Source: a virus
Taxonomy: Duplodnaviria; Caudoviricetes
IMG/VR virus record: IMGVR_UViG_3300025009_000123
Span: 1 to 57,929 of that record
Direction: 5' to 3' (one strand)
DNA: 57,929 bases
The position numbers and the translations under genes were made by a program. The notes beneath the pieces were generated by a model. That model was not told the origin of the DNA and searched no databases. It saw nothing but the letters and a program-made list of their open reading frames with translations. This document shows, one piece after another, positions 4,869 through 56,231 of this stretch; the stretch's first letter is position 1; each line of letters starts with the position of its first letter.

Positions 4869-5522
4869 TTAAATTTTTACAACAACATCAACAACCTTTC
4901 CAACTACGCGGAAGTCAACCGGGCTGTCTTTACGAATAACTATTTCGGGATATTTATTGTTCATCGGTCGCAATATAATAGCATCTTTTGTATCATAATA
5001 AAATTTAAATGTTGCCTCGCCGTTTAACACCGCCACACACGGGCAACCGTTGTCACAGGCTATTTCGGGGTCATCCACAATAATGTCGCCGGGAAGATAT
5101 CGCGGATACATGCTGTCGCCCTCAACGCGCAGCCCAAATGCGTTTGGCCCTGTTTTTTTGTATGAGTGAACCGGATCTCCCTCGCCGGAAACGCCCGGAG
5201 GCCATTCGTCGGAAGCCTCTGCAAGCAACCCTGCGCTAACCCACGATATCACCGGAAGCGGCCCTGAATATTTTTCCGGCAACTGAACAGACGAGAATTT
5301 ATACATCTCGCTCTCATCAACATTAAGTTTCTCGCAGATAATTTTCAATATTTTGTTTCCGATATTTCGCCGAGCCCCGGTTTCTTTATCGTTTAAAATC
5401 ATTAAAACATACACCTGGTCGCGGTCAATAAGGCGCGCGAGATCGATGGGGCGAAGGCTGCGCTCCTCCATTAAACGCATCAGGTTTTTCCGCTTAATGT
5501 CGTTTAAATTAACATCAATCAT
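4869..5522 (-). CDS. cI: CI-like repressor (HTH plus S24 autopeptidase)
   Basis: N-terminal HTH; VSAG cleavage-type site; GDSM catalytic Ser; TFK catalytic Lys; divergent from the Cro-like gene. Confidence 0.9.
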   Translation of the reverse strand: MIDVNLNDIKRKNLMRLMEERSLRPIDLARLIDRDQVYVLMILNDKETGARRNIGNKILKIICEKLNVDESEMYKFSSVQLPEKYSGPLPVISWVSAGLLAEASDEWPPGVSGEGDPVHSYKKTGPNAFGLRVEGDSMYPRYLPGDIIVDDPEIACDNGCPCVAVLNGEATFKFYYDTKDAIILRPMNNKYPEIVIRKDSPVDFRVVGKVVDVVVKI

Positions 5523-31703: not shown

Positions 31704-32255
31704 ATGGAAAAGAACGCTTTTATAAAAATAATCAAACAATATGGTTTTCCGCAAATGGTCCTTACGAGACACATGCGGAGTTTTATAGGGGCCGAGATTT
31801 CCAGCGTCACCAAGGGAACGTATAACCATTTTTGCTGGCTGATAAACGAAAACACCATAGCGAGCCAGGATCTTATTTTTAAAATCGTTTCTCTCGATAC
31901 CTATCTTCAAGGATTGCATATAGTCAAATTTGTTACAGATACCAGGTGGACGCTCGAAGCGAAAGCGAGGATTCTGGAAAAAATAAATACCGAACTGAAA
32001 TATCATTGGTGGAAGCGAAGATATGATCCGCTTGCCATCCTGGGCCAATGGTTAGGCTGGAAATGGCTTCAAGACCCAAAAGCCGATATATGCTCTGATA
32101 AAATAAAGTTCATTAAAGACGAAGACCCGGATTATAACCTGGTATTCCCGAATCCAACAGACGTAAACGAATACCAGAAAATACATCAAGCTACGCCCGA
32201 AAACAATATGCAGGGATACCTGGTTACGGGCCGATGGTTGCCGGAGGATTTATAA
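31704..32255 (+). CDS. Permuted papain-like (YiiX/YebB, NlpC/P60) peptidase or amidase
   Basis: I..VT.G.YNH (His first), RYD, then ICS (Cys last). Confidence 0.65.
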   Translation: MEKNAFIKIIKQYGFPQMVLTRHMRSFIGAEISSVTKGTYNHFCWLINENTIASQDLIFKIVSLDTYLQGLHIVKFVTDTRWTLEAKARILEKINTELKYHWWKRRYDPLAILGQWLGWKWLQDPKADICSDKIKFIKDEDPDYNLVFPNPTDVNEYQKIHQATPENNMQGYLVTGRWLPEDL

Positions 32256-32258
32256 TTA

Positions 32259-32648
32259 ATGCGAGCAGAGCTATACAGAAAACACCTTTATTATAAACTC
32301 TTTCGGGCTCTGCAAGACGAAGGATACGAGGAAAGCCAAATGAGTTTCGAAGAGGATATCTGTTACGTTCTGCCAATAGGCTTTTTCTCTTTCAGGTTTG
32401 AGAATGGCCATCCTTTTCTTGTTCATTTTCTTATATTTAAGGAACACCGGAGCCTTAACAATGCGATTGCGCTTTATCGTGTCTTTAGAAATATAATAGT
32501 TTCCCTGGGCCTGGTGTCTTTTATTGCCCTTGCCAGCCGCGAGAAGTTCTTTGAGACATTTTTTAAGTGGGTTGCGCGAGACAAAAGCCTTGAGCCATAC
32601 ATGACGCATAATAATATAAAATGTTATTACATCACCTGCAGGAGGTAG
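32259..32648 (+). CDS. GNAT-like acyltransferase
   Basis: PIGFFSF..LVHFLIFKEHRS..AIALY resembles GNAT motif A; in the position of T7 gp13-like genes. Confidence 0.5.
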   Translation: MRAELYRKHLYYKLFRALQDEGYEESQMSFEEDICYVLPIGFFSFRFENGHPFLVHFLIFKEHRSLNNAIALYRVFRNIIVSLGLVSFIALASREKFFETFFKWVARDKSLEPYMTHNNIKCYYITCRR

Positions 32649-32650
32649 GC

Positions 32651-33697
32651 ATGAAAATTTATAAAAGGGTTGTTTTGAGTATCGAGACGGGGGAGATTAT
32701 CGATGAAGATAGCTTTGAATATTCCGGACAAATAGCTCTTTGCGGAGGCGACACCAAAACCATTGGCTCTACCATATTTGATCCGCTTAATTTGAGCGGT
32801 GTCCGAACGCCGGATACTCCGGATGCCCCAGGGAAGACTTCGGCAGAACAAAAGCTTGACCAACAGCAAATCAACCTCTTGCAAATACAAATTGAGAACA
32901 GCCAAAAACAGCAGAAACTTCAAGAGGAATTCGAGCCTTTTCAGCTTGAAGCAATGGGCTACAAGCGAGACATAAACGGCAAAATCCAGAAGATAGTAAA
33001 AGCGCCCGAACCGCCTACCCCGCAAGATATTTTATTGAACAAGCAGCTTGCCATGGCAGGGTTTTCTCCCACAGGGGAAAAATTAACCGAACAGCAAATG
33101 ATTGACCAAATGAGCGAAAGCGAAAAGGCGGACTATGAATTGACAAATATTTCCCGCCAGCGCCAGAAAGACGCCATTGAGGGCAAGATCCCGATCAGTC
33201 CCGCACTCGAAGAGGAGCTTGCAAGCGAAGAGAAACAGGCAACCGAAATGCTATCCCGCAAACTTGGGCCGAATTGGATGCTGACAACTCCGGGCCAGAA
33301 AGCCATGGTGAGCCTCAAACAAAAAGCCGAACTGCTGAGAGAGGAAGCCAGAAGGGGGCAGATAACTTCCGGCGAGGGGATTCTCGCGTCAAGGACGAAC
33401 CAGGAAAACTTGAAAAGCAATATGCTTTCAGGAATTTCTGGAACCATCGGGCTTGCTGCTGATATAAAAAACAACACCTTGAACCAGAAGACATCTGAGC
33501 TTTCCAGGATGCAAGGCTATGTGAGCTCGCTGGGGGGCGGAAATGCGTTTGACAATTCCCTCAGTCTGTCAAGCAAGTATGCGTCTGAACGGGCCAACAC
33601 TCAAAATCTTGCCATGCAAAAATGGACAACTCAACAGAACCAACAGAGTTCAAATACTTCGGCTGGTATGGCGGCAGCGGCAGCGGCAGCGGCTTAA
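32651..33697 (+). CDS. DNA ejection (pilot) protein with an N-terminal leader ending ALCGG
   Basis: MKIYKRVVLSIETGEIIDEDSFEYSGQIALCGG; Gln-rich helical body; ends in 8 Ala. Confidence 0.65.
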   Translation: MKIYKRVVLSIETGEIIDEDSFEYSGQIALCGGDTKTIGSTIFDPLNLSGVRTPDTPDAPGKTSAEQKLDQQQINLLQIQIENSQKQQKLQEEFEPFQLEAMGYKRDINGKIQKIVKAPEPPTPQDILLNKQLAMAGFSPTGEKLTEQQMIDQMSESEKADYELTNISRQRQKDAIEGKIPISPALEEELASEEKQATEMLSRKLGPNWMLTTPGQKAMVSLKQKAELLREEARRGQITSGEGILASRTNQENLKSNMLSGISGTIGLAADIKNNTLNQKTSELSRMQGYVSSLGGGNAFDNSLSLSSKYASERANTQNLAMQKWTTQQNQQSSNTSAGMAAAAAAAA

Positions 33698-33722
33698 TAC
33701 TATAAAGGAAAGGTTTAAATAT

Positions 33723-34589
33723 ATGAAGGACAAGATCGAATCAGCGAAAGAAATTATCAGCATGACGGACAAGAACTATAAAAACCCAATAATCTATACG
33801 GGTTTCGGAAAGGACTCCATCACCGTTTTACACCTATGTCGGGCCATGGGCTATAAGTGGGATGTGATGTTTCATCGAGATCCGCATTTTCCCAGGAAAT
33901 ACAGATACGCCAACAAAATTATTGATATGTGGAACGTGGTATGTCGGGATTATCCGGCGAGGTCCACAAGCATCTTTTACCGGAATGACACCTTTGAAGT
34001 TGTCAGGGAATATGGCATAGGATACGGCGCATTGATCTTATGCGCCCTTCTTTATAAGCCGGATGAATATATCGAGGGTGAATATCTTTGCGGTCTCAAT
34101 GATGTGTATCTGCAGCCCAAGGGGTCTGGCGATTATATTTGGGATGTAGCCCTTGAAGGATTCAGGACGGTTGAATCAAAACCCCATTCCGGAGGCCGGC
34201 CTTGTGGTTTAAGATGGGTTAATAAACAGAATATCGGGAGTGCCGACGTAGTATTTCCGCTTCACAACTGGACCGGCCAGGATGTTTATCAGTACATCAT
34301 AGACAATGGAATCCCGATCAATACGGACGTCTATGATGTAAAAGACGGGGAGCTTGTTCCTAAGATTGATCCAAAAACGGGGAAGATAGACAGCACCTAT
34401 AACCCGGATCGTCGGCCAGCCTGTACCGAGTGTATGCGCCCCGAAAACCCCCAAAGTGTTTTATGCCCTAAAAAAATGATGACAGTTAATAATGTGTGGG
34501 AATATCTCGTAAAAACAATAAGGCCGAATGATTTTCCGGGGTCTCAATGTGACGCGGAAAAGGATTGGTCGGAAAAAGGAGGAAAATAG
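33723..34589 (+). CDS. PAPS-reductase-family (PP-loop) protein
   Basis: TGFGKDS PP-loop, G.R..E, FPL.NWT..DV..YI, C-terminal CTEC..CP. Confidence 0.75.
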   Translation: MKDKIESAKEIISMTDKNYKNPIIYTGFGKDSITVLHLCRAMGYKWDVMFHRDPHFPRKYRYANKIIDMWNVVCRDYPARSTSIFYRNDTFEVVREYGIGYGALILCALLYKPDEYIEGEYLCGLNDVYLQPKGSGDYIWDVALEGFRTVESKPHSGGRPCGLRWVNKQNIGSADVVFPLHNWTGQDVYQYIIDNGIPINTDVYDVKDGELVPKIDPKTGKIDSTYNPDRRPACTECMRPENPQSVLCPKKMMTVNNVWEYLVKTIRPNDFPGSQCDAEKDWSEKGGK

Positions 34590-34590
34590 T

Positions 34591-35898
34591 ATGCCATTTC
34601 AAGCGCCGCATTATATTTATCCGACACCAGACACGCCTGATATGACGGGCGCAATAAAATCCGGGCTCGCCATGGGGAGGACAATAAAAGCCGATCGCGT
34701 TCAGCAGGAAGAAAGAAAAAAGAAGGACGCTCTCGAAAAGGAGATAGGCGATATTTACAAAGAGGCCGAATCAAAACTCGCTGAATATGACAAAGAAAGT
34801 CCGCCTGCAGGACAGCGCGATCCGAAACAAGGAGAGCCTGTAGCCGTCCAGGGCGCATCTCCCGAAGCTGTAAAAATGGCCGGTGTAACGCCTGAGCAAC
34901 CAGCCTCAAACCTTCAAGCTGCAGCAGGGGTTACCGAGAAAGCAGCGGCACTTCCTCCTGCCAATAATAACAATAAGCGCCTTGAAATCAACGCGGATAT
35001 GCACAATAAGATTATAGGTGCGTATATCAAGCACGGTGACTATAAAAGCGCCGAAGAATTGAAATTGAAGTATATGTCCAATGTTGAGAAATTAGCCTCC
35101 CTCGACCCCGAAGCCGCTGAAAAAGTCTGGAATAACTCATATCTGAAAAAGGAATTCGGCGGCATTGACTTGAAGAGCCTTAAGAGCGAATGGAAGGTGA
35201 CGATATCAAAAGACGGGAACACAGCCCTGAAAGTCAATTCCAGGACCGGCCAGGTTTTGCCCGTCCCACTACTCAAAGACACAGACCAGGTTAAACAAAT
35301 GAAAGAGGGCGATAGCCTTGTCATGATTAACCCCAAGGACGGCAAAGTATCAGAGATATATAAAAATTCTAAACCGGCCGGCGACCTGGACGCAGAAAAG
35401 ACCTTTATTAAGGCAGAGACAGCAAAAGGAACAGCCCCAGAAGTTGCGGCTAAAAATTGGCGGGGTATTGTTGATGCTGGAAAGGCTAAGGGAAAGACCG
35501 GCGGAGCTGAAAAGAAAACGGCTCTTCAAAAGAATTTTGAGTTTCTTGTAGCCAGGGGAATGACAGACGCGGAAGCTATGTCGATTCTTGAACCTGGGAA
35601 GCTGTCAAAAACTAAATTTGTGGGCGGGGTATATGGAGCTATAGTTAGAAGCGGGGGGACCGCTGCAGAGGCTCAAAAGGCCGCTGACGAAGCCGGAGCA
35701 TATTACGAAACGATGCCCGAAAAATCTTCCGCGCCGTCGAGTGGTGTTGTCACAAAAACAGCAAAAGGAAAGGAACCGTCCGGAAAAGTGGACATTGCTG
35801 CAGAAAGAGCGAAGGCTGACGCCGCAATAAAGATAAGACCGGATCAAGCCGGTAATATCAAAAAGAAATATCAGCAAATAACAGGCCAACCTTATTAA
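34591..35898 (+). CDS. Internal virion / ejection protein
   Basis: Lys/Ala/Glu-rich; lies between the pilot and giant genes; GGAGG RBS. Confidence 0.6.
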   Translation: MPFQAPHYIYPTPDTPDMTGAIKSGLAMGRTIKADRVQQEERKKKDALEKEIGDIYKEAESKLAEYDKESPPAGQRDPKQGEPVAVQGASPEAVKMAGVTPEQPASNLQAAAGVTEKAAALPPANNNNKRLEINADMHNKIIGAYIKHGDYKSAEELKLKYMSNVEKLASLDPEAAEKVWNNSYLKKEFGGIDLKSLKSEWKVTISKDGNTALKVNSRTGQVLPVPLLKDTDQVKQMKEGDSLVMINPKDGKVSEIYKNSKPAGDLDAEKTFIKAETAKGTAPEVAAKNWRGIVDAGKAKGKTGGAEKKTALQKNFEFLVARGMTDAEAMSILEPGKLSKTKFVGGVYGAIVRSGGTAAEAQKAADEAGAYYETMPEKSSAPSSGVVTKTAKGKEPSGKVDIAAERAKADAAIKIRPDQAGNIKKKYQQITGQPY

Positions 35899-35916: not shown

Positions 35917-38900
35917 ATGCTTATCGATTTTTTGACCGGGCTATTCTCTTCTAAAAAGAAACCTGATTACACTAATCCCGAAGAAAATGAATATCTGCAA
36001 AATATTCCCGACGCTACCGATCCGGAGCAAAACGAATACCTTCAAGATTTACCGGAAGTTGCCACGAAGGAGCCCGAAGTTGTAACCCCAAAAGGCGGAT
36101 ACGACTTAACCGGGAAGGGTGGGAAGCTATTTGTGCAGAGGCAACCCATCGATTATGACATGGGCGCCGAGGCCGCGATCCAGGAGTCCGCCGGATTAAG
36201 CGGAAAAATGAAGGAAATCGCTGACGCCAATAAACCAAGGTGGCAACCAGCCGGGCGCCCGATATCCACCTTGTCCGGCAAAGAAGTTCCGACGTCCGAA
36301 GAAAACTTAGAGACAGGCAATAAGAGGGGCTTGTTAATGATGTCCCTGCCTGCTTATGCGCTCGCCGCATTTACAAGAGGCGTAATCCCAAGAGCATTGG
36401 AAACGAGTGTCGGTAACGTCTATACAAAGACGTTCATGGGAAAAGATTATGTTTCGCCTATTGACGAAGCGTTAAAAGCGTCAGGTAAAAATATACCGGG
36501 TGCCGGACCCGCGATTATTGGCACAGCGGCGCAACTGACCGGCGCTACCGTACCTATCAGACTCGCTTTCAGGGCAGCAAACGAGATAATGGCAGCTATG
36601 GGCCTGCCAACCGACCTTGTTTTAAGCTCCGGATCAGCGGTCGAACAAATAGCTGCACACGCATTGAGGGGCGGAGCCGCAGGCACAATATACGGCGGAA
36701 CAACACAAGGCACACCCGAAGCCATGAAAGACGACGCCCTGTTCTTTGCAGGGTTAGAGGGCGCCCTGGGAGCCACCGGCATAGCCTTACAGAAGATGGT
36801 TGATTCGAATTGGTTCAGGCGTCTTACCGTCAAAGAGCGCGGCCTTGTGGTTCAAAATCTGGACGACATGATAGCAAGGGGATATCCGGTAGATGATTTG
36901 CTGGATAAGGGTTTTTCTCCCGACGACCTGATTAAAAAAGGATTCACCATTGACCAGGTATTTAACAAACAGCCCGAAGGGGCGGCGGCCGCATTTGCCA
37001 AAGCAAACGGAATAAAATGGCCCGTTGAAAAGCCTCTCGTACCAAAACCCTCAATCGGTCCTGGGCTCAGAAGCAATCAGGCGACAAAGAGAGCGGAGAT
37101 ACTAAAGAGAGAGCTTAACCCTGAAACAAACCAGTTATATACCGAGCCTGAAATAGCGGCTATATTAGAGAAAGAATTCGCTCCCGCTGTAGAAACCGTT
37201 CCTGAAACCGCCGCTGCGGCCGATCCCAAGGCCCAGACCAAGCAAATATACGACGCTTTTAAGGAACAGGCCGAGACCGGTGCGGATATCCAGGCTCTTA
37301 TTTCTGGTAAAAATACGATTGTTTCACAGTTCCCGCACCTTGAAGATGAACTCAATAAGATAATAATCGATGCAAAGGCAGCCAAGCCGATAGTTCCTCC
37401 CGTTGAGGTCAAACCGGAAACTCCGGAAGAGCCCGCCATTCCTGAAAAAGAAAGACACTTGATGGGCCGGGATGAATTCATCCAGAACGCCAAAAACAAG
37501 TTAGGAAATAAGTTTCTCCCGGACGGATCGCCGTTTGGAACGGAAGGACAATTTACAATAGCTGCCGGTGCGGCTCATAGGGAATTCGTTAAACAGGCCA
37601 TTGCATCCGGCGAATTAACCCCGAAAGACGCTGTTAAACTTCACAAGCAGGACTATTCAGATATCGAGACCTGGCCGGAGATGAAAGCCCCGGAGAAACC
37701 GATTGCCCCCGAGACCTCGCCAGACTCGACCGCCTCTTTCGAGCCACCAAAACAGGCCCAGGGGCAAGTGCTTTCTGTTCCGATTGAATCCCTAACCGTA
37801 GCACCTGAAAAATTTCAATGGCGCCGGAATCTCGGACAGGGCGGAGTTGATTCATCCCTAAAACACATTAAGGTATGGAATCCGGATCTGGCCGGAGTTG
37901 TTGCTGCCTGGAAAGACCCTGCAGATGGAAAAACATATATTATTAATGGACATCACAGATACGAAAGAGCCGCCGCGCTCGGAGTCAAAAACCTCGATAT
38001 CAAGTACATCAATGCGCCCGACGCAAAAAACGCCAAGATGATCGGCGCATTAATCAATATAGCGGAAGGACACGGAGATCCGGTTGATGCAGCTATCGCC
38101 TTAAGGGAATCCGGAAAGACAGGGAAGCAGCTTGAAGAGGAATACGGCATATCGTTAAAGCGCTCGCTCGCCCAAAAGGGTTTTGCCTTGTCTAAACTTG
38201 ACAGAGGAATTATAACTGCGATTCAAAACGGCGAGATCCCGGAAGAATGGGGCGTAATTATTGGCAATTCGATTGAGAGCGAAGACACCCAATGGCTTAC
38301 TGTAAAATCACTTTTAAGGGAAAAGGCGAAGGGCAGACGGATAACGGATCGTTTTGTCGAGGAATACACCAATGAAATAAACGGCATACCTAAAATCGTT
38401 CACGTTCAGAAGATCCTGTTTGGTGATGAAGTTACCGAGACCCCAATTATTGTAGAAAGAACCGAACTCCGCGAATACGCGGCGAAACAAATAGCCGAGG
38501 ATAAGAGCCTGTTCGGGCTGGTAAGTAAGTCTTCAAAAGCTCAAAGGCTTACCGAAGAGGGAAGCACCGTTGATGTTGACAGGAGCAAGAAAATAGCCGA
38601 AGATGCGAAGACAGCATCCGAGGCCCTTGCAAGATTCGCATCCATAAAAGGAATTATAAACGACCTCTTAAACAAATATGCGGAGGAATTAGCAAATGCA
38701 AAATCAACAGGAACCAGAAACGAAATCAAGCAAAACTTCTATGGAGAACTCCGAGCCGCAATTCCCGACGTTATCGCAGGGCGATTGGGATCAGGTAGCG
38801 GGGGAGTTTCTAAGGATAGTGGACCCGAAGCTGTTAAACCAGCCGAAGAAACCGTAGACAAAGAAGTCCACGACTACAGCAGCGCCCAGGTCAATCTCCC

Positions 38901-41900
38901 CGAACCGAAAGTTGGTTTTGTGAGAGTTTATCGTGGTGAGGAATCGTTAAAAGGCAAGCCCGGTAAATATACAGGGACATCATTTTCCCCAGACATAGAA
39001 TACGCAAAAAGATATGGGCGAGAAGGGAAGGGCGGTGTTTACTATTTAGACATACCGGTCGAGTTAATGACAGACGCTAAATATGCACATTTAAGACGCT
39101 CAGCAGATGGTGTTGTGCATGAGATTGCCGTTCCTAAAAATTTACAATCTCAATATGGTGGGAAAAAGCCGACAACCCCTACAGCCCCAAGCCCTGACAA
39201 GCCTACTCCACCAGATGCCGCCAAACCGGAGATCAAGAATCCGGAGGGTACTGGCAAGCCCGAAAGCCAGCCAGCAAAGCCGACAATGGAAAAGTTTGCC
39301 GAAAAAACGCCGGAGGAAAGAAAAGATGCCGTTGCTCTCGCAAAATCATTCACTCCTGGCGATAAAGTTTCATGGACTGACAGCAAGGGCGAAGCGCATA
39401 CAGGCAAAGTAGCAAAAAGACAAACCGGCTCGATAGGGCAGGATTACCGAGACCAGGGACTTGTGCTCGTATCGACCGACGCAGGAAATAACACCGTATC
39501 CGCCGATCTATTAAAAAAGGAAGTTGAAGCAAGTCCTTCGGATACAACACCATTTGATAAATGGAAATCCGGTCTGAAACTAATTAAAGAACCTATCAAG
39601 GGAAGTCAGGCTACAAAAAATTATTATGAGGATTCCGAAGGAACGAGGATTAGCCTTTCCGACACAGAGTCACAAGAGGGCTTGGATAAGAGGTTGTTAG
39701 ATATTTATAATTTAAAAGAGGAGGCTCCGGCTGATACTACCGGAAAGATTGAAGACTTCGGGGAAAAGATAGGTGGGGCCAGAAAAGATACTGCCGAAAG
39801 CGGCTACACCCTGGTCGGAAAAGAGAAAAAAGAATCATCCGCTCCGGCATGGCGCAAGAAATATGTTGCAATGGAAAAGGTTGATGGAACCGGATGGACT
39901 ATTGGGAAAACAGGTGATCGGCCTGGCATAAGTGCTCGCTCTTCTCAAAAGTTTGCCCCGAAGGAAGAAGCTGAAGCAGCCATTCCTCTTCTTGCCGTTG
40001 CTGATAGCCATAGGGTTTACCAGGGCCGAACCGACACCGGTTATTCGATATTCAAGAAGGTTGGAGAAAAGAAACTCTTCAAAGTTGTTAATCAAGACTT
40101 CCCTTCTCGCGAAGAAGCTATGAAATACATGGCCGAACATGCTGAAGAAATTTTGAATATCAAGACAACTTTTGGCGAAGAAATTCTCCCCGTACCCGAT
40201 AACGCACAGCGCAAAGGGATTGAGCGCAGAACAATAGACGCAACGCCTGAAATGTTTATGGAAACATTCGCGCCGAGAGGCATTGAGTTTGGGAACTGGA
40301 ATAACCAGGAAGAGCGCCAATTAATAATGAACCATGCGTATGATGGCCTCCTCGATCTTGCGGATGCGCTTAATTTACCTCCGAAAGCACTCATGCTAAA
40401 CGGTGAGCTTGCAATAGCATTCGGGGCCAGAGGGCAGGGTCTTTCCGGGGCAAAGGCACATTATGAACCTGATTATGGAGTTATCAATCTGACAAAGATG
40501 AAAGGCGCTGGCTCGCTTGGACATGAGTGGATGCACGCCTTTGACCATTATCTCGCAAGGCTTGATACCAAAGCCTCATCAGAAAAGAAACCGAATGAGC
40601 GCGGGGATATGGTTTATAATAGATCCGCCAACAAAATAGACTTTCAGAGCCATGGAGCCAGTTATAAAACACAGTTAAGACCGGAACTCAAAACCGCTTA
40701 TGATACATTGATTGATTTGATGTATAAAAGGGCGGAGCAATATGTTGAGGACACAAAACAGGCGGACAAGTTTATTGAGACGGCCCGCGAGAACCTTAAA
40801 ACAGCACTGAATGGTATTCGCTCCAATTTGACACAAGACATGACGAATTATCACAAGAGCAAGGGGGGATATAGTAGTAAATCCATTAAATACTTTGAGC
40901 CAGCATCGGCTGAACACCTTGCCGAATTTGACCGACTTGCGAATATTCTTATTGAAGGCGGGGACTTAAAAACAGAATTCAGATACAATAAGCCTGAAGG
41001 CGCAAACACACCAGCTATGCGACCAAAGGGAATGAGCAACGCCGCACATGGAAAATTAATCTCACATCGTTATTCAAACGATACGCTTGATGGTATTAAC
41101 GCCGTTCTGAAAACAGTACGAAACCGACAGGGGTTTAATAAAGAAGGTCATGGCTATCTTGACCGAGTTCGTGCGGCCATGAACACCTATTCCGAAAGAT
41201 TAAAGATGCTTGAGGATGCAAAGGCCGGAACTGAAAAAACAAAGAAAGTATCCACGTCTTATGCGATTGAAGCCAAAAAGATGGATCAGGCGCGCTCCAG
41301 CGATTATTGGAGCGAGCCGCATGAAATGGTTGCAAGGGCTTTTGCCGCTTATGTTGAAGACAAAATAGCAGAGACCGGTGGACAGAGCGATTTTCTTGTT
41401 TATCGTGCTCATGGCGGTATCCTGCTTCCAATGATTGACGGATTCGTAGCAAGGCCATACCCTGAAGGCGCTGAAAGAATAGCGATAAATCAAGCGTTTG
41501 ACGCATTTGTTAAAGAGATCAAAACAAAAGAAACCGATAAAGGTACGGCAATTTACGAACCCGCCACGCCCTATTCCGTGGAAACCGAAATTCCCATATA
41601 TAAAATGTCCGAAAACGGGGACTTGACAAAAGCTCCGAACAATGTCTATATTAATGAAAAGCAGATGGGGTTGTTTGTTCGCAACGAACATCAAGGGAGG
41701 CTTTTCAATGAAAAAATATCCAATGCCGGTAAGCGGCCTAAAAATATGCCAGCCGGTACTGAAGCACCACAAGGACGGGAGATATCCGGAGTTCGTGGAG
41801 ACATGGGATACCGGCCTGAATCCGGAACCCTGCCCGAAATCAGCTCAAAACCCATCGGAAAATGGGAATCATCCCGAAGCAGCATAACCTCCCCTGAAGA

Positions 41901-44900
41901 CGTTGCCGTAATCGCAAGGGATAATATTGGGGACGATGCCCAAGAATCTCTCATTTCCATCGTCACGGACGACTCAGGTAAAATACTTGCCATAAATCAA
42001 CACGCCATAGGCGGTCCCGGAAGATCACAGGTTTTCCCAGCTATTTTATCGGGCCAGATATTAAACATTCCTAAAGGTAAAAACGCCTGGTTAGTCCATA
42101 ACCATCCTGCTGGTGTGTCCGATGTGTCGCCCGAAGATGAGTTTATTTCCACAAATACTTCAAAGATTCTATCTGGTTCTGACATTGTATTGCATCCCAT
42201 AATGGCGATCACGCCGAAAGAATACTCAACTTTCAGATCTCCTGCTATTGCGATTCCGGCAAAAGAAAAAGCCACACACACATTTGATGTCCTCGGGAGA
42301 AAGTTCGATGTCCATCCGGAAGGACTTGCCGCTGTGTCCAGTCCTGATATGATGGCTGAATTCGGTGAAAAATATGTCAAGAACGGCGGAATCATTCTCT
42401 TAAACACGAAACTTCATCCGCTTGCCATTATAGAGGTTTCAGACTATTCCAAATTAAAACCCGATCATCTCAAAATTCTTAAAGAGGCGGAGAAAAGAAA
42501 CGCCTCGGCTTTTATGGTTTACGACAAAAACAGAAAGGTTTCCGAAGAAGGCATGCGGAACCTTTTGAAATTTGAGAAAGCCACGACCTTGCAGTTTATG
42601 GCATTGCACGACAAGACCGGCGAGATGTCGCATTGGATAGACACGGCGCGGATTTCCATTGGGGATAATAACGAGTTTTTTTCTATTAAAGGACAAGGAG
42701 GAAAAACAAATGAAGGACGAAGAGCCGTTGGTGAGAATAAAAACGGAGAACGGGGAGACGTATTACCCGAAGTTCGAGAAGAACACGCGAGACAAGTGGA
42801 CGCCCAAAGACAAGTCTCTGCAAAAAACCCTCAGGCACCGAGCGCGTTCCGAGAAGCCTGTGAAAAAGGGCAGGGGCTAACTCACTATCCGGAAGGATAT
42901 TCTGACCCCGAATTTGCCGAATTGCGCGATATTTCAGAAGGGTATGGACTTGATCTTGTTCCTGTCAAAGATACCAGCGACACCATAAACGCGGTTATCA
43001 GGGACGGGCGCGTTTTCCTGAACATGATGCGAGAGAAAGGCAGCGACACCCTGAAGCATGTCGTACTGCACGAAATCAGCCACGCCAAGGGTAACGAAAC
43101 AACTCAGGAAAAAATAGACACGCAATCCGAGGCATTTAGAAAGTATCGGCATAAATTAAGCTGGTACTACTTCGGTACGCCCTCCCGTTTGCTTTCGACA
43201 AAGCATGTGTTGGAAGAATTTGCCGCCGATTTGGAGAGTGGCATTGATTCGCGGTATGGGATAAAGCTGGCTGACGGATTGAAAAAGGGCGAGACAATTG
43301 CGCCGATAACAATAGATAGGGTAAGCCAGATAGGAAAGGAGACGAGAAAGGCGAGAGGCCCGCCAGAAAATGAACAATATTCCGTCCGGAAAAAAGAAGT
43401 CCCCGGATCTCTATTCCCAGAAGTCAACAAACGGTTAGAAGAATCGAAGGGAATCAAGTATGCCTCATTAACCGACAAAACCAAAGACGCCCTTGTTACA
43501 GGATGGGAGAGTTTTACACGACACTTCCCGCACCTGGACCCGAAGACTGACGGCGAGGTTATTGATATTTTCCGAAGATTCCAGGATGTGCCGGGATGGT
43601 CGAAGCATGAAACGATCCGGAGACTTGAAGAGTTTGTTGGAAAGCTCTCCCCTGGGGATCGTCACGTTTTCACCATGAATATCATTTTGCCTGATATGTT
43701 GAGGGACTTAGACAGCGGGCCTCTTCAAATTGAAGAAGACCAGGAGCTACCCTTTGGTTATAAAAACAAAGAAGAAGTTGAGCAGGACAGGGACAACTTT
43801 AAAGATCTGGCCGATAATAACCCGGCAATAAAAGAGGCTCTTGCAAAACGGAATACCTTTATGAAGTCTCTCACGGATCAACTTGTTGAGCACGATCTCC
43901 TTGACGGGGAAAAAGCGAAAGATCCAGCGTCTTATTTTCATCACCAAGTTTTGGATTACATGAATTACAAGGAAAATCCGAATTGGGGTATCGCTTCTAG
44001 GGATGTCCGCACCCACAGAAAGGGTTGGCAGATAGGCCGTGTCGGATCAACCCTCGACTATAACACCGAATACGTTGAGTCCGAATTCGAGGTTATATCC
44101 CAGGCATTGACACAAATAGAGACGGTAAAAACCCTTAAAAGGATCAAGGACGCCGCAGACATCAAGCCGGAGCTGGAGGCCCAGGCCAAAGATCAGAACA
44201 TGAAGGCCTTTTATAAAAAGGCCATGACTAACCCGCTCGAAGATCCCCTGGCGCCGTATAAGCAACAAATAGCCATAGGATACAGCAAGCTCGGTAAAAT
44301 GGTCGCTGCTGGAACGCTCGAAGCTCCCTCTTCATTTGACGACGTTATTGAGCATATAGCGGACCAGGCAGAGATCCGTAAAGCATCAAAACAGGACGGA
44401 GTGGAATTCAATCCCGAAAGCCATCCGAGAATGTTCGCCCTTTTAAACTATCTTGTGACTCACGGAGGCCCAGGATCGGGACCGGCGACCATGATATTTA
44501 AAGCGATTGTCGATAGAAACGCCTTTATCAAACAGGTTGTCGGGAAAGATTGGGTTACTTATAACGATTTAATTCCAGAAGGATACGAAGCCCATAAACC
44601 AGAGGCGAGGAGCGCTTTCTATTTTGCAAACACTATGACGGATCAGGCTCTTTCCATGGTTGTTTCAGGGAAAAAGGATTTAAACGACGTTATCAAACGC
44701 GAGCTGGTTCGCGGTTATGACGAAATATGGATTGTAAAGAAAGGCATATCAAAAACACTCAACGAATTCAGGCCGGCTATTGAGGGATCGCTCCCGGAAC
44801 GGATCTCGGCAGACATGCTTTCCGTGTGGAAACAATGGGTGCTTATGAATCCATATAGAGTTATCAAATATAATCTTAATAATATGAGCGGTGATCTTGA

Positions 44901-46488
44901 CATCTGCCTTGCTTATGATCCGAAAATAGTTTGGAACTATTTCTGGCCCGCTTTTAAAGATCTGGTTGCGGCATCGAGGGGCAAAGCTACATCTTTCCTC
45001 CTGGATGATCTGTCTGATATGAATAAGCTCGGCGTTATAGGTTCCGGCATGACCAATATAGATATACCAGAATTAAGCGGGGTTGAATCCATCAAGGGTC
45101 TTGTTGATTTCTTTGACGGCAAATCGAAAAACGCCCTGACCAGATGGTATAATATGAATAAGCAGCTCTCAACTCTCCGAGAAAATATCCTCCGACTGGC
45201 TGCATACAGGTATTTTCTGGACAAATTGAACAAGGGTGAGTTGGTTTACGGCGCCTCGAGGAAGACCGAAGTTGATCCGATAGAGGACAAGAGCGAAAAG
45301 GCCGCGAAACTGGCGAGGGAACTTGTTGGGGACTACGGGAATATAAGCCATGCTGGTCAATGGGTTCGCAAAAGATTGATCCCGTTCTGGAGCTGGAGCG
45401 AAATAAACGCGCCCCGGTATGTCCGGTTGATGAAAAACATAAGGTATGAGATGGGCGATGATTTTATCGATATGATTCCGGATGAATCGGGAGAATACGC
45501 TATGAAGAGAGGGGGGGATTGGTCTCGTCGATACCGGAGATATGGCAAAATGGGCTCTGTATTCGCGTGGAAGGGGACGAAGTTGGCGGCTTTCGCCTCT
45601 GCGCTTATGGGCATGGTTATGATGTGGAACGCGGCCATGTTCCCGAAAGAAGAAAGAGAGCTCCAAAGATCGGGCAGGGAACAGCTTCATTTAATCCTTT
45701 ATCGCCGGAAAGATGGATCGATTGTAACGATTAGATTCCAGGGCGCACTTTCGGACGCGCTTGCCTGGTTTGGCATGAGTAACCCGGTGGAACAGATAAA
45801 GGAAGTCTATAAAGGTGAAAAGGGTTCTGGCGAACTGACAAAAGATGTTTTAACCGGAGCGCCCTTGAAGATATTCCAGGGGTTGAGGCCAGAGCCGAAA
45901 ATATTATACGAAGTCCTATCCGGACAGGGGTTCTATCCCGATCCACTGCATCCTCGGCCGATAAGAGATACCACAGAGCACATTTTGAGGACATTCTCTC
46001 TCGATAAACTTTACAATATGGCCGCAGGCAAACCAAGAAAAGGCGGTTCATGGGAAAGCCAACTATTAAGAGACATCGAGGGAATGCTATTGTATGAAGC
46101 GGACCCGGGGGAGCAGGCATATTATACAATCCGTAAAGACGTCTTTGATTGGTTAGAGAAAAACGGTAAAGAAAAGCCGGTAACCATGCCGACCGGCAGG
46201 GCCAACAATCTATATTATTATAAACAAGCCTTGAAATATGGTGACTTTGACGCGGCTCAGAGATACCTCAAAAAATATGAGGAAGCTGGCGGAAAGTGGA
46301 AAAATATCAGGACGAGCATTAAACGTGCTGATCCGCTGGCGTCTTTGGGAGGACGGGACCGCAGAAAGTTCAGAGAAACTCTGACGCCTGAACAGAAACA
46401 GACCCTTCTTATAGCAAGCGAGTGGTATAAGAGGCATTATGTTGATACATATAGAGACCCAAGGGCGAGAAAGGCGGCTACTGAATAA
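35917..46488 (+). CDS. Giant polyvalent internal virion protein (ParB-like, ART-like, LPD5/LPD1, two HExxH motifs, RadC/JAB)
   Basis: INGHHR (ParB-like); YRG..SFS..YA..E (ART-like); KIEDFGEKIGGARKD; EFGNW..HEWMH..YWS.PHEM.ARAF; HNHP.G...S.ED; HEISH. Confidence 0.85.
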   Translation: MLIDFLTGLFSSKKKPDYTNPEENEYLQNIPDATDPEQNEYLQDLPEVATKEPEVVTPKGGYDLTGKGGKLFVQRQPIDYDMGAEAAIQESAGLSGKMKEIADANKPRWQPAGRPISTLSGKEVPTSEENLETGNKRGLLMMSLPAYALAAFTRGVIPRALETSVGNVYTKTFMGKDYVSPIDEALKASGKNIPGAGPAIIGTAAQLTGATVPIRLAFRAANEIMAAMGLPTDLVLSSGSAVEQIAAHALRGGAAGTIYGGTTQGTPEAMKDDALFFAGLEGALGATGIALQKMVDSNWFRRLTVKERGLVVQNLDDMIARGYPVDDLLDKGFSPDDLIKKGFTIDQVFNKQPEGAAAAFAKANGIKWPVEKPLVPKPSIGPGLRSNQATKRAEILKRELNPETNQLYTEPEIAAILEKEFAPAVETVPETAAAADPKAQTKQIYDAFKEQAETGADIQALISGKNTIVSQFPHLEDELNKIIIDAKAAKPIVPPVEVKPETPEEPAIPEKERHLMGRDEFIQNAKNKLGNKFLPDGSPFGTEGQFTIAAGAAHREFVKQAIASGELTPKDAVKLHKQDYSDIETWPEMKAPEKPIAPETSPDSTASFEPPKQAQGQVLSVPIESLTVAPEKFQWRRNLGQGGVDSSLKHIKVWNPDLAGVVAAWKDPADGKTYIINGHHRYERAAALGVKNLDIKYINAPDAKNAKMIGALINIAEGHGDPVDAAIALRESGKTGKQLEEEYGISLKRSLAQKGFALSKLDRGIITAIQNGEIPEEWGVIIGNSIESEDTQWLTVKSLLREKAKGRRITDRFVEEYTNEINGIPKIVHVQKILFGDEVTETPIIVERTELREYAAKQIAEDKSLFGLVSKSSKAQRLTEEGSTVDVDRSKKIAEDAKTASEALARFASIKGIINDLLNKYAEELANAKSTGTRNEIKQNFYGELRAAIPDVIAGRLGSGSGGVSKDSGPEAVKPAEETVDKEVHDYSSAQVNLPEPKVGFVRVYRGEESLKGKPGKYTGTSFSPDIEYAKRYGREGKGGVYYLDIPVELMTDAKYAHLRRSADGVVHEIAVPKNLQSQYGGKKPTTPTAPSPDKPTPPDAAKPEIKNPEGTGKPESQPAKPTMEKFAEKTPEERKDAVALAKSFTPGDKVSWTDSKGEAHTGKVAKRQTGSIGQDYRDQGLVLVSTDAGNNTVSADLLKKEVEASPSDTTPFDKWKSGLKLIKEPIKGSQATKNYYEDSEGTRISLSDTESQEGLDKRLLDIYNLKEEAPADTTGKIEDFGEKIGGARKDTAESGYTLVGKEKKESSAPAWRKKYVAMEKVDGTGWTIGKTGDRPGISARSSQKFAPKEEAEAAIPLLAVADSHRVYQGRTDTGYSIFKKVGEKKLFKVVNQDFPSREEAMKYMAEHAEEILNIKTTFGEEILPVPDNAQRKGIERRTIDATPEMFMETFAPRGIEFGNWNNQEERQLIMNHAYDGLLDLADALNLPPKALMLNGELAIAFGARGQGLSGAKAHYEPDYGVINLTKMKGAGSLGHEWMHAFDHYLARLDTKASSEKKPNERGDMVYNRSANKIDFQSHGASYKTQLRPELKTAYDTLIDLMYKRAEQYVEDTKQADKFIETARENLKTALNGIRSNLTQDMTNYHKSKGGYSSKSIKYFEPASAEHLAEFDRLANILIEGGDLKTEFRYNKPEGANTPAMRPKGMSNAAHGKLISHRYSNDTLDGINAVLKTVRNRQGFNKEGHGYLDRVRAAMNTYSERLKMLEDAKAGTEKTKKVSTSYAIEAKKMDQARSSDYWSEPHEMVARAFAAYVEDKIAETGGQSDFLVYRAHGGILLPMIDGFVARPYPEGAERIAINQAFDAFVKEIKTKETDKGTAIYEPATPYSVETEIPIYKMSENGDLTKAPNNVYINEKQMGLFVRNEHQGRLFNEKISNAGKRPKNMPAGTEAPQGREISGVRGDMGYRPESGTLPEISSKPIGKWESSRSSITSPEDVAVIARDNIGDDAQESLISIVTDDSGKILAINQHAIGGPGRSQVFPAILSGQILNIPKGKNAWLVHNHPAGVSDVSPEDEFISTNTSKILSGSDIVLHPIMAITPKEYSTFRSPAIAIPAKEKATHTFDVLGRKFDVHPEGLAAVSSPDMMAEFGEKYVKNGGIILLNTKLHPLAIIEVSDYSKLKPDHLKILKEAEKRNASAFMVYDKNRKVSEEGMRNLLKFEKATTLQFMALHDKTGEMSHWIDTARISIGDNNEFFSIKGQGGKTNEGRRAVGENKNGERGDVLPEVREEHARQVDAQRQVSAKNPQAPSAFREACEKGQGLTHYPEGYSDPEFAELRDISEGYGLDLVPVKDTSDTINAVIRDGRVFLNMMREKGSDTLKHVVLHEISHAKGNETTQEKIDTQSEAFRKYRHKLSWYYFGTPSRLLSTKHVLEEFAADLESGIDSRYGIKLADGLKKGETIAPITIDRVSQIGKETRKARGPPENEQYSVRKKEVPGSLFPEVNKRLEESKGIKYASLTDKTKDALVTGWESFTRHFPHLDPKTDGEVIDIFRRFQDVPGWSKHETIRRLEEFVGKLSPGDRHVFTMNIILPDMLRDLDSGPLQIEEDQELPFGYKNKEEVEQDRDNFKDLADNNPAIKEALAKRNTFMKSLTDQLVEHDLLDGEKAKDPASYFHHQVLDYMNYKENPNWGIASRDVRTHRKGWQIGRVGSTLDYNTEYVESEFEVISQALTQIETVKTLKRIKDAADIKPELEAQAKDQNMKAFYKKAMTNPLEDPLAPYKQQIAIGYSKLGKMVAAGTLEAPSSFDDVIEHIADQAEIRKASKQDGVEFNPESHPRMFALLNYLVTHGGPGSGPATMIFKAIVDRNAFIKQVVGKDWVTYNDLIPEGYEAHKPEARSAFYFANTMTDQALSMVVSGKKDLNDVIKRELVRGYDEIWIVKKGISKTLNEFRPAIEGSLPERISADMLSVWKQWVLMNPYRVIKYNLNNMSGDLDICLAYDPKIVWNYFWPAFKDLVAASRGKATSFLLDDLSDMNKLGVIGSGMTNIDIPELSGVESIKGLVDFFDGKSKNALTRWYNMNKQLSTLRENILRLAAYRYFLDKLNKGELVYGASRKTEVDPIEDKSEKAAKLARELVGDYGNISHAGQWVRKRLIPFWSWSEINAPRYVRLMKNIRYEMGDDFIDMIPDESGEYAMKRGGDWSRRYRRYGKMGSVFAWKGTKLAAFASALMGMVMMWNAAMFPKEERELQRSGREQLHLILYRRKDGSIVTIRFQGALSDALAWFGMSNPVEQIKEVYKGEKGSGELTKDVLTGAPLKIFQGLRPEPKILYEVLSGQGFYPDPLHPRPIRDTTEHILRTFSLDKLYNMAAGKPRKGGSWESQLLRDIEGMLLYEADPGEQAYYTIRKDVFDWLEKNGKEKPVTMPTGRANNLYYYKQALKYGDFDAAQRYLKKYEEAGGKWKNIRTSIKRADPLASLGGRDRRKFRETLTPEQKQTLLIASEWYKRHYVDTYRDPRARKAATE
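41623..41652 (+). promoter_or_regulatory. Internal sigma70-like promoter within the giant gene
   Basis: TTGACA-N18-TATATT upstream of a nested ORF that has an RBS. Confidence 0.5.
41708..41887 (+). CDS. Nested +1-frame ORF (59 aa)
   Basis: GGGAGG RBS 7 nt upstream of ATG; promoter upstream. Confidence 0.45.
   Translation: MKKYPMPVSGLKICQPVLKHHKDGRYPEFVETWDTGLNPEPCPKSAQNPSENGNHPEAA
42710..42880 (+). CDS. Nested +1-frame ORF (56 aa, basic)
   Basis: Perfect AAGGAGG RBS 8 nt upstream of ATG, with an A-rich spacer. Confidence 0.5.
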   Translation: MKDEEPLVRIKTENGETYYPKFEKNTRDKWTPKDKSLQKTLRHRARSEKPVKKGRG

Positions 46489-46718: not shown

Positions 46719-47696
46719 TCATCCAAATACCGACCTAATCTGTTGAGAATGTTTTTTAAATGTAGTGTGTAAATATATCTGGGTCGTGCTGATACTCGCA
46801 TGGCCAAGCATGTCCTGAACGCTCTTTAGATCTGTGCCGCCTTCGAGTCCGTGGCTCGCAAAGGCGTGTCTCAGCATGTGCGGCGTAACCCCTTTAACGC
46901 CAGCCCGCTTAAGAGTCGCCTTCCATGCCGTCTTAAACGATCCGATATTGTCCCATACAAACAGGCTGGAAGAGGATGATTCTTGATAGATTAAAAGCGA
47001 TTCTAAAAGCATGGATGATAGTGGGATTATCCTTTCCTTATCGCCCTTGCCGTTTACTCTGAGATATCCTGATTCAAAATTGATATCAGACCATTTTAAA
47101 GAGCGGGCCTCCTGTGATCTTAAGCCGGCATGGTACAGGGCTATAAACAATGAGCGGTGAAATGGGCCTGACGCATGTTCGATTATGCGATATATCGTAT
47201 CCGGATCAGGGATGTCGGGTAATTTTTTCTTATATGGCAGGGGGCTTAACTTCATTGATGGTTCATTACACAGGCCGCGCCCAAATCCCCACTTCAACAT
47301 GGCCTGCAAGCACAGCAATTCCAGATTGACCTGGCGATATATTTTCCTTCCGTCTCCAAGCCTTTTTTGTTTATAGGCATCGACGATTTGCGGTGTTATC
47401 CGGTCCGGCATTAGCGCCCCAAAGTAGGGCAATATCGACGCAAACAGCATGCGCTTTTTTTCTCTTGCCGTCTTGGCCGCCTGGTGCATATCCATCCAGA
47501 CGATATATTTTTCAGCAACAAAAGATATGTTGTAGGCTGACAAATCTTCCCTGCCAAGCTCACGGCGGTATTTTGTTTCAAACGCCAGGGCTTCTATATC
47601 CGATCTCGCCTTAACCCTTTTGCGAAAGCGATATCCCCTGCTGCCCATGGGAATATTAATATCATATACTCCGGTTCTGACTTTTCGGATCGACAT
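46719..47696 (-). CDS. int: Tyrosine integrase
   Basis: GLR..E, GKGDKER, HMLRH, LGHASISTTQIY; likely start MSIRKVR. Confidence 0.95.
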   Translation of the reverse strand: MSIRKVRTGVYDINIPMGSRGYRFRKRVKARSDIEALAFETKYRRELGREDLSAYNISFVAEKYIVWMDMHQAAKTAREKKRMLFASILPYFGALMPDRITPQIVDAYKQKRLGDGRKIYRQVNLELLCLQAMLKWGFGRGLCNEPSMKLSPLPYKKKLPDIPDPDTIYRIIEHASGPFHRSLFIALYHAGLRSQEARSLKWSDINFESGYLRVNGKGDKERIIPLSSMLLESLLIYQESSSSSLFVWDNIGSFKTAWKATLKRAGVKGVTPHMLRHAFASHGLEGGTDLKSVQDMLGHASISTTQIYLHTTFKKHSQQIRSVFG

Positions 47697-47850
47697 AATC
47701 ATTTTTAATATTCCTCTTTTTTTGAAACCGCAAGACATCATTTTTAACCTTTTCCTCCATCTGTGCCGGAGACAGGCTGGGGGTCTTGTCCAGTCCGAGG
47801 GCAACAAGTATGAGGTCTAATTTGCGGTTTATGGTTTCAAGGTCGTTCAT
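47662..47850 (-). CDS. Hypothetical 62-aa protein overlapping the int start
   Basis: ATGA-coupled to the upstream gene. Confidence 0.5.
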   Translation of the reverse strand: MNDLETINRKLDLILVALGLDKTPSLSPAQMEEKVKNDVLRFQKKRNIKNDYVDPKSQNRSI

Positions 47851-55821: not shown

Positions 55822-56231
55822 AAAACCCCCTGTTTCCTGAATATGCACAACATTGAAGGACGCATTGCTCCCGCCTTTGAAAACCCGACAAACTTAATAC
55901 GCCCTCTCAAAAATCTCAATTCCGCTTTGCCATAAACGTAATCGTGAAACCATGCCGTATCTGTATTGGCAAACACCAGAAAAACTATGACATCAGCATT
56001 TTTATTGAGTTCCGCCTGAGCCTTAATAAGCCATGCCTTGACTTGAGAATAGGGTGGATTCACAAAGACATTGCCGGTCCAGTCTATTTTCAGGCCATCA
56101 AAATCAGCATGTAGCGGGCAAGGGTCAAAGTTAAAATGAAACTCGGTATCAAGTTGCTTGTACAGATATTCAGGAGTTCCCCAATCATCAGTTATTTTAG
56201 ACCCGAATAATTTTATTGAGTTTTCATCCAT
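55818..56231 (-). CDS. Phage DNA N6-adenine methyltransferase (Dam family)
   Basis: DDWGTP, F.FDPCP, VFVNPPYS, TDT.WFH, RFLRGRIKF. Confidence 0.9.
   Translation of the reverse strand: MDENSIKLFGSKITDDWGTPEYLYKQLDTEFHFNFDPCPLHADFDGLKIDWTGNVFVNPPYSQVKAWLIKAQAELNKNADVIVFLVFANTDTAWFHDYVYGKAELRFLRGRIKFVGFSKAGAMRPSMLCIFRKQGVL

Follow-up and report, generated by a model that had tools for sequence, protein, structure and literature searches.

The genes 14, 7, 20 and 16 of podophage P22 lie directly after the tail genes and encode, in this order, a small accessory protein, a small protein with a hydrophobic tail, a middle-sized protein and a large one. According to its record, the second of these, gp7, is relieved of a 20-residue leader by the host protease OpdA; the processed protein has a Gly-rich start and a hydrophobic C-terminal Gly-zipper tail. 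The ejection proteins of short-tailed phages are little understood, not least in how their hydrophobic ends stay soluble, are packed and get into the envelope of the host. Here, we analyze a block of comparable layout in the virus record IMGVR_UViG_3300025009_000123 (the whole of this 57,929-base stretch is called the window below). In it, gene C, for a small protein with an uncharged tail, lies between gene B, for a predicted GNAT-fold protein, and gene D, for a PP-loop protein with the PAPS-reductase/CysD fold; genes E and F follow, and a papain-like gene, A, precedes them (Table 1).

The same gene order, with similar protein sizes, is found in the Bcep22-like podophages (Lessievirus: Bcep22, BcepIL02, DC1, BcepMigl and JC1; also CSP3 and many Ralstonia phages). 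Bcep22 gp69-gp70-gp73-gp74-gp75, of which gp70 is annotated as structural, parallels B-C-D-E-F of the window, and JC1 gp63 to gp69 do likewise. The portion of the JC1 paper available to us gives gp63 as an acetyltransferase of 146 amino acids, gp64 as a virion-associated protein of 332, gp65 as a PAPS reductase of 240, gp66 as a hypothetical protein of 99, gp67 (196 amino acids) and gp68 (510 amino acids) as virion-associated proteins and gp69 as a DarB-like giant of 4515 (PMC9144972). The virion proteomics in that portion (its Table 6) lists gp64 (9 peptides), gp67, gp68 and gp69 but neither gp63 nor gp65, and the authors there describe the latter two as moron genes with a suggested role in sulfate reduction (PMC9144972). 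The CSP3 paper, in its accessible part, reads the enzymes in much the same way (PMC10269572).

For Bcep22-like phages, both the genes and their order have been deposited in GenBank and published, with the genes interpreted as morons. A literature search covering few subscription journals returned no paper that links a PAPS-reductase-like or acetyltransferase gene to ejection proteins. What is new here is that a known enzyme family is seen to occupy a constant place among structural genes for which there is no explanation yet, together with a new hypothesis about its substrate. If the enzymatic link is true, the family would gain a new class of substrate, and the common annotation of such genes in viromes as cysH auxiliary metabolic genes would be corrected.

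B and D hold fixed slots around a small tailed ejection protein

Genes A to D are all on the + strand, and the gaps between A and B, B and C, C and D, and D and E are 3, 2, 25 and 1 nt, respectively. The order B-C-D-E-F recurs in four other loci (L003, L006, L008 and L096), and homologues of E follow D in the first three of these. In the window, the block comes after a nozzle-like 520-amino acid protein and a fibre gene, with A interposed, and by position it corresponds to a podovirus ejection (internal virion) protein block. The positional counterparts of E are P22 gp20 and Bcep22 gp74, and those of F are P22 gp16 and the DarB-like giants of Bcep22 and JC1, which measure 4515–4602 amino acids against 3523 for F.

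C itself may be regarded as an ejection protein on the grounds of its gene position and of the virion association of the JC1 gene product encoded at the same position; the terms “pilot” and “leader” are used for C as labels, not as observations. It resembles P22 gp7 in position, size and tail only. A profile of the C family (alignment A1) gave a probability of 5.5% when aligned to gp7 with hhalign, and C has no Pfam match, so it does not fall into PF25688, the gp7 family. P22 also differs in having no PP-loop gene and no detectable sequence similarity to B or C.

With an E cutoff of 0.1, B has no Pfam match. Its ESM Atlas model (predicted template-modelling score, pTM, of 0.78) aligns to ten GNAT clusters with TM scores of 0.75–0.81, a comparison from one source in which both sides are predicted models, and on this basis B is predicted to have the GNAT fold. 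When the open reading frame (ORF) directly upstream of a C-family gene was inspected in 21 loci, it exceeded the Pfam GNAT cutoff in five and matched weakly in six more. Furthermore, a hidden Markov model (HMM) of the B family, built partly from the same loci, finds a match in 32 of 42 C-family loci, and several of the ten loci without one are contigs cut off upstream. These results support conservation of the GNAT-pilot gene pair, and the same pairing is present in Bcep22, JC1 and CSP3. By language-model features, the nearest named cluster to B is DUF2824 (P22 gp14), at 0.92; profile comparison of the B family (alignment A2) with P22 gp14 and with Bcep22 gp69 gave no similarity.

The slot of D is likewise occupied in distant phages. 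A profile of the D family (alignment A5) matches Bcep22 gp73 with a probability of 98% (E 1.3e-13), although gp73 is shorter (242 amino acids) and carries FSGGKDS and a CC ... CxxC arrangement where D has C ... CxxC ... C. The protein encoded before it, gp70, ends in an uncharged Gly/Ala tail as C does, and has a hydrophobic N-terminus in place of the acidic block of about 30 residues found in C. Genes of the gp73 type are present in 43 phage records (31 Ralstonia, 10 Burkholderia, 1 Aeromonas and 1 uncultured). The Aeromonas phage, phiA008, shows the same pattern: the gene preceding its D-like gene encodes a protein with an uncharged, hydrophobic C-terminal tail, and a giant protein is encoded afterwards.

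To this we can add a scan of viral contigs, which yielded 65 loci with a D relative at 24–36% identity to D of the window; 62 could be parsed, the other three having lost the D ORF to an overlap filter. The next upstream ORF on the same strand ends in an uncharged, Gly/Ala-rich hydrophobic tail in 55 of the 62, compared to 6 of 310 other neighbouring ORFs of the same loci, and its stop overlaps the start of D in 31 of those 55. The seven exceptions comprise two tails with a single lysine, one intervening SET-domain gene, two cases in which an ORF on the opposite strand was picked, and two others. The upstream protein begins with MG[GS] in 38 of 60 cases, while none of the 62 D proteins and none of 115 ORFs three or four genes upstream does so. 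Downstream of D there is usually a protein of 140–230 amino acids, then one of 300–390 and then a giant of 1000–2000. The tailed proteins of these loci have no detectable homology to the C family except for the segment made up of the Q/N-rich stretch plus the tail, which aligns with probabilities of 78% and 37%; this likeness may reflect composition.

B and D thus hold fixed slots around a small tailed ejection protein across very divergent phages, which shows that the PAPS-reductase-like and acetyltransferase-like genes are no random passengers, despite their annotation as morons in Burkholderia and Ralstonia phages. MG[GS] N-termini concentrate in ejection-block proteins more generally, being found in 6–10 of about 50 proteins at each of the next positions.

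The presence of D goes with an uncharged tail

The C family allows D-carrying and D-lacking loci to be compared directly. Viral, metagenome and genome loci were pooled; a locus qualified if its C gene was complete and if it either carried D or had 900 nt or more of sequence downstream. Rows with identical last 80 residues were removed, which left 42 loci. Tails were classed by whether the last 15 residues are uncharged and the last residue is hydrophobic. In the 14 loci with D, every C protein ends in poly-Ala or another uncharged tail with a hydrophobic end, none having an uncharged tail with a polar end or a charged one. The 28 loci without D divide into 3 uncharged tails with a hydrophobic end, 5 uncharged tails with a polar end and 20 charged tails. 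The presence of D is in this way linked to tails that bear no charge other than the terminal carboxylate. The initial annotation had proposed to look for co-occurrence of the PP-loop gene with pilots ending in small hydrophobic tails, and both locus sets, the 62 D loci and the 14 D-carrying C-family loci, bear it out.

On a tree of 41 C proteins (one of fewer than 200 amino acids was dropped), the loci with D form one clade of 12 and two separate rows. This distribution needs three changes, of which well-supported branches force at least two. The cleanest contrast is that of L106, which has D and an uncharged tail ending in IIAF, with its sisters L132 and L134, which have no D and end in GLKK. 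One further locus, L100 (1059–1880), was left out of the table, only 804 nt of its downstream sequence being present. Its C protein ends in a tail that is uncharged and hydrophobic; in place of D, there is an overlapping ORF with weak matches to class-I S-adenosylmethionine (SAM) methyltransferases (best E 3.8e-4); by eye, the C-terminal part of this ORF resembles an AdoMet-decarboxylase-like start.

C has 79 relatives (alignments A1 and A6) and matches nothing in Pfam, PHROG or the PDB sequences, and its profile gave nothing below E 0.87 against the PDB. It lies in a longer ORF (32621–33697) and is read here from an internal ATG. The best-conserved part of the family is an acidic N-terminal block of about 30 residues that leads to a nearly invariant cysteine (Cys31 in C, within ALCGG at residues 29–33) and glycines. 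A conserved core (ISPALE ... REEARRG) follows, and a Q/N-rich stretch then leads into the hydrophobic, uncharged Gly/Ala tail, which in C closes with GM and eight alanines. Several relatives begin exactly at the junction of the N-terminal block, with MGC.., MCGG or MGG... The ALC sequence was considered as a lipoprotein signal and rejected: the block is acidic and not hydrophobic, and the residue before the cysteine varies (L, H, E, Q, K, R or W).

A Peptidase_S74 (intramolecular chaperone) domain is carried by 17 of the 79 C relatives, P0049 and P0054 among them. In the two such proteins examined, the domain starts just after an Ala-rich hydrophobic stretch, and self-cleavage would therefore leave a C-terminus similar to the poly-Ala tail of C.

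Fold, family and candidate roles of D

D is the only one of the four proteins A–D with a sequence-family match: PF01507, with E 6.9e-10 and 39.7 bits against a cutoff of 22.5, besides PHROG families named “PAPS reductase”. It is read here from position 33723 of a longer ORF (33543–34589) and contains the PP-loop TGFGKDS and a CTEC motif, followed 11 residues on by a further cysteine in VLCPK. Across 79 aligned members of the family (alignment A5), nothing is invariant except the PP-loop residues G-K-D-S (G29–S32 in D) and the cysteines C123, C234, C237 and C248, which probably hold an Fe-S cluster or zinc.

The AlphaFold model of D derived from the 79-sequence alignment has a predicted local distance difference test score (pLDDT) of 92.2 and replaced a model from a 5-sequence alignment with a pLDDT of 56. 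Structure comparison (VIA) places D closest to CysD (1zun_A, Z 16.2, root-mean-square deviation of 2.7 over 158 residues) and to the PAPS domain of FAD synthase (Z 15.9), followed by APS/PAPS reductases (Z 12.6–15). Other PP-loop enzymes (TilS, LarE, NcsA and GMP synthetase) score about Z 8–11, with the [4Fe-4S] LarE 8cnz_A at Z 10.9 and NAD synthetases at Z 7.7–10. The matches cover residues 1–237 only, leaving the C-terminal cysteine region unmatched, and the Foldseek TM score normalized by the query is ~0.4. The profile of D matches CysD with E 1.4e-20. With its PP-loop and adenine-nucleotide alpha-hydrolase fold, D is a member of the PP-loop ATP pyrophosphatase superfamily.

Curated models of the metabolic enzymes fit D poorly. 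It scores 23.9, 24.3 and 18 bits against the CysH models TIGR00434, TIGR02057 and NF002537, whose cutoffs are 165.1, 254.2 and 154 bits, and 31.9 bits against a cutoff of 396.6 for the NCBIfam CysD model; over all CysD, CysH and PAPS-reductase models of NCBIfam, the range is 18–32 bits against cutoffs of 154–413. The DndC model gives 12.7 bits against 290.4. Because the curated cutoffs are missed so widely, D is no ordinary equivalent of cysH, cysD or dndC, in agreement with the initial annotation, which had set it apart from auxiliary metabolic cysH genes. The catalytic C-terminal cysteine of CysH sits in an ECG[LI]H-type motif, and direct reading of the D sequence finds none. Pfam scans of 60 window ORFs (8 + 26 + 26) turned up no sulfur-assimilation or dnd gene, as had also been stated initially, and no desulfurase, dndD/E-like partner, GTPase or CysN family appeared among the scanned ORFs. 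CysD, CysH, APS reductase and the FAD-synthase PAPS domain (PF01507) hence share the core fold with D, but its genomic context is unrelated to sulfur metabolism.

An exhaustive search for the D family, with an E threshold of 0.001, gave 249 representative clusters, mostly 255–290 amino acids in length. Within the PAPS-reductase/CysD branch, D is part of a large clade specific to phages. A tblastn search with D against phage records found nothing, and other D-type queries gave no match or weak matches (22–24% identity) to cultured phages. Several relatives show additional features. A SET domain is fused to two of them (P0162 and P0184), and SET genes adjoin D in three loci (L036, L040 and L063). 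CxxCxxCC (PF03692) genes stand directly after D in eight loci (L066, L067, L076, L079–L082 and L084). In P0199, the protein is interrupted immediately past the PP-loop by an intein that has a LAGLIDADG domain, and one relative combines TPR and a glycosyltransferase domain. Locus L006 (6691–8512) has two tandem copies of D between C and E, 47% and 59% identical to D of the window.

We tentatively read D as a non-virion accessory enzyme that acts on the tail of C by ATP chemistry, with B acting at the N-terminus of the same protein; we regard this as a serious possibility, short of probable. In this scheme, C would use its uncharged Gly/Ala tail to insert into the envelope of the host, with E and F as the middle and giant members of the ejection block and B and D as non-structural accessory enzymes dedicated to C. 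A non-structural role for both enzymes is suggested because gp63 and gp65 are missing from the list of virion proteins in the available portion of the JC1 paper. The SET and CxxCxxCC genes found beside D relatives, the SET fusions and the weakly methyltransferase-like ORF in the D slot of L100 are neighbours of a protein-modifying kind and count in favour of this reading.

As to chemistry, D would use ATP to adenylate the free C-terminal carboxylate of C, the sole charge on an otherwise uncharged tail, and the adenylated carboxylate would be converted to an amide or a thiocarboxylate, or into a linkage, before C is packed into the procapsid. Removal of the charge would let the tail enter or cross the host membrane; alternatively, the activated end would prime C for covalent attachment to a partner. 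Carboxylates are known to be adenylated by LarE, NAD synthetase and asparagine synthetase, and LarE inserts sulfur. These enzymes and the lasso-peptide cyclases have a PP-loop fold like that of D but belong to other branches of the superfamily, and the likeness points to a possible mechanism only. In this specific form, with a PP-loop/Fe-S enzyme modifying the C-terminus and a GNAT capping the N-terminus, the scheme is doubtful. The analysis shows the folds, the motifs, the synteny and the covariation of D with the tail; we infer the substrate, the chemistry and the removal of the leader. If C-terminal editing is true, C would be the first protein substrate for the PAPS-reductase branch; it would also be the first DNA-delivery protein of a phage known to be tailored by enzymes, in a widespread class of podoviruses.

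Several observations weigh against this reading of D and B. Gene order in phage structural operons is inherited, and adjacency alone is therefore weak evidence. The raw Fisher p of 1.3e-8 for D against tail class in the 42 loci ignores kinship, and only about 3 independent contrasts of D and tail exist on the C tree. Most C-family phages (28 of the 42 loci) and P22 do without D; as P22 gp7 and three of the D-lacking C-family loci have a similar tail, the tail can work without D. The absence of the enzymes from the JC1 virion proteome, as far as the available portion reports it, may only mean low abundance. A Peptidase_S74 domain, as is typical of structural fibres, is found in one relative of D. 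We know of no PAPS-reductase-branch enzyme that acts on a protein, and C is a putative substrate of D.

The part ascribed to B is open to further objections. The acetyl-CoA motif A of GNATs is R/Q-x-x-G-x-G/A, and in B (HRSLNNA, alignment A2) it is poorly kept, the arginine being retained and the usual glycines gone; because of this, the predicted enzymatic activity of B is uncertain. In the 62 D loci, moreover, the small ORFs two genes upstream of D have no similarity to the B family and are not detectably GNATs, a single weak GNAT Pfam match (in L089) being the exception.

Among the alternatives, D might be a late nucleic-acid-modifying or anti-defence enzyme of the DndC, SspD or PAPS-Dam anti-Dnd type that merely resides beside the giant anti-restriction protein F. 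Phage PAPS-reductase genes have been discussed as DndC/SspD homologues and anti-defence candidates in the accessible part of one paper (PMC13551039), and the available part of a preprint describes a PAPS-Dam fusion with anti-Dnd activity in vibriophages (10.1101/2021.05.05.442762). F and its counterparts in Bcep22 and JC1 are, besides, polyvalent DarB-like proteins. We nevertheless find this explanation unlikely, considering (i) the DndC score and the lack of a desulfurase or dndD/E-like gene among the scanned window ORFs, (ii) that the vibriophage protein, as described there, is a methylase fusion located in a different genome region, (iii) that an anti-defence function does not account for why D should track the charge of the tail of C, and (iv) that the D counterpart, undetected in JC1 virions in the portion of that paper available, could not act at entry.

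Alternatively, D could be an ATP-driven holdase or assembly chaperone that covers the hydrophobic tail in the cytoplasm and delivers C to the procapsid without modifying it covalently. The same synteny and the same covariation with the tail fit such a role, as do the lack of the D counterpart in JC1 virions, within the limits of the source, and the tails that work without D in other lineages. However, the strict invariance of the PP-loop and of four cysteines in 79 diverse sequences fits an enzyme better, and no PP-loop protein is known to us as a chaperone; we consider this role improbable too.

The view of the JC1 and CSP3 papers, in the parts available (PMC9144972, PMC10269572), that the D-type gene is an auxiliary metabolic cysH/cysD-type moron boosting host sulfate assimilation draws on the PF01507 match and on CysD and CysH as the nearest solved relatives, but the curated model scores, the missing ECGLH-type C-terminal motif, the dependence of CysD on a CysN that is not among the scanned window ORFs and the position of D, which in a manner not typical of morons stays constant within a late structural operon across deep divergence, make it very improbable.

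Gene A and the remainder of the window

The initial annotation had described four tightly packed genes, A to D, with the motifs ALCGG, eight terminal alanines, TGFGKDS and CxxC...C. All of these are present in the sequence, and its fold assignments (papain-like A, GNAT B and PAPS-reductase D) hold in the light of the models and of PF01507.

A has no match in Pfam (E up to 0.1), PHROG or NCBIfam. Its ESM Atlas model (pTM 0.72) aligns with TM scores of 0.70–0.76 to Peptidase_C92/YaeF-YiiX (permuted NlpC/P60) clusters, and H42, D108 and C130-S131 are invariant across 16 relatives, which fits a permuted His ... Cys catalytic pair; the predicted fold and this pair place A in the Peptidase_C92/permuted NlpC-P60 superfamily. 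Homologues of A are absent from 22 viral loci found via the C family, from L096 and from Bcep22. Used as a single query, A returned only a near-identical contig, and the seven loci with more distant relatives lack B, C and D in the vicinity; two of them have the relative of A directly after a small lipoprotein-like ORF, as in lysis cassettes, which suggests a lysis-related role for this C92 family. A is thus a neighbour, an unrelated NlpC/P60-type gene and no component of the module, since it is missing in C-family relatives and its own relatives sit without B, C and D.

The relatives of A that lie directly 3′ of small ORFs with lipoprotein-like signal sequences are in L155 (4693–5489) and L157 (4639–5489). 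In L157, holin- and endolysin-like ORFs are seen nearby by eye.

A four-gene system resembling those of ribosomally synthesized and post-translationally modified peptides (RiPPs), in which A would take off the leader at a site near GG, B acylate the N-terminus exposed by this cut and D act on the C-terminus, as had first been envisaged, accords with the folds of A, B and D, with the leaderless C relatives that start at the junction and with the Gly-rich sequence after the leader of P22 gp7, but given the distribution of A and its relatives described above, leader cutting by a host peptidase in P22, and the nature of C, a 348-amino acid structural protein with a conserved core and no short precursor peptide, it is hardly tenable. 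Removal of the leader of C is a reasonable supposition that needs no phage protease, and a phage-encoded one is not supported.

Table 1 Features of the window discussed in the text
Feature	Coordinates	Strand	Basis
A, permuted papain-like protein (Peptidase_C92/NlpC-P60 superfamily, predicted), 183 aa	31704–32255	+	ESM Atlas model, invariant residues
B, small protein with predicted GNAT fold, 129 aa, directly upstream of C	32259–32648	+	ESM Atlas model
C, putative small ejection (pilot)-type protein, 348 aa (MKIYK...)	32651–33697	+	Position, tail; internal ATG start
N-terminal block of C, residues 1–33, candidate removable leader	32651–32749	+	Best-conserved stretch of family
Codons for the eight terminal alanines of C	33674–33697	+	
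D, PAPS-reductase/CysD-fold PP-loop protein, 288 aa (MKDKIES...)	33723–34589	+	PF01507, AlphaFold model
E, middle ejection-type protein, 435 aa, no family match	34591–35898	+	Position
F, giant polyvalent protein, 3523 aa, LPD5 + LPD1 + RadC/JAB domains	35917–46488	+	Pfam
Integrase	46719–47807	−	
S24-type repressor	4869–5522	−	
Dam methylase	55818–56231	−	

The window as a whole is one complete virus record. Its + strand encodes the packaging and head genes (small and large terminase subunits, a P22-type portal and a major head protein), a GH108 endolysin, an SU10-type adaptor-like protein, the 520-amino acid virion protein and the fibre-like protein, and the − strand encodes the integrase, the S24 repressor, the Dam methylase and recombination genes. 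The combination of virion genes on one strand with the integrase, repressor and methylase on the other therefore identifies the phage as a temperate podovirus (short-tailed phage); the window is its complete genome.

A ParB-like stretch noticed by eye near residues 620–700 of F found no support in Pfam or PDB sequence searches, and the idea of an IbrA/IbrB-type arrangement was dropped. Contigs carrying relatives of C and D were binned with metagenome-assembled genomes of Deltaproteobacteria, Smithella and Clostridia.

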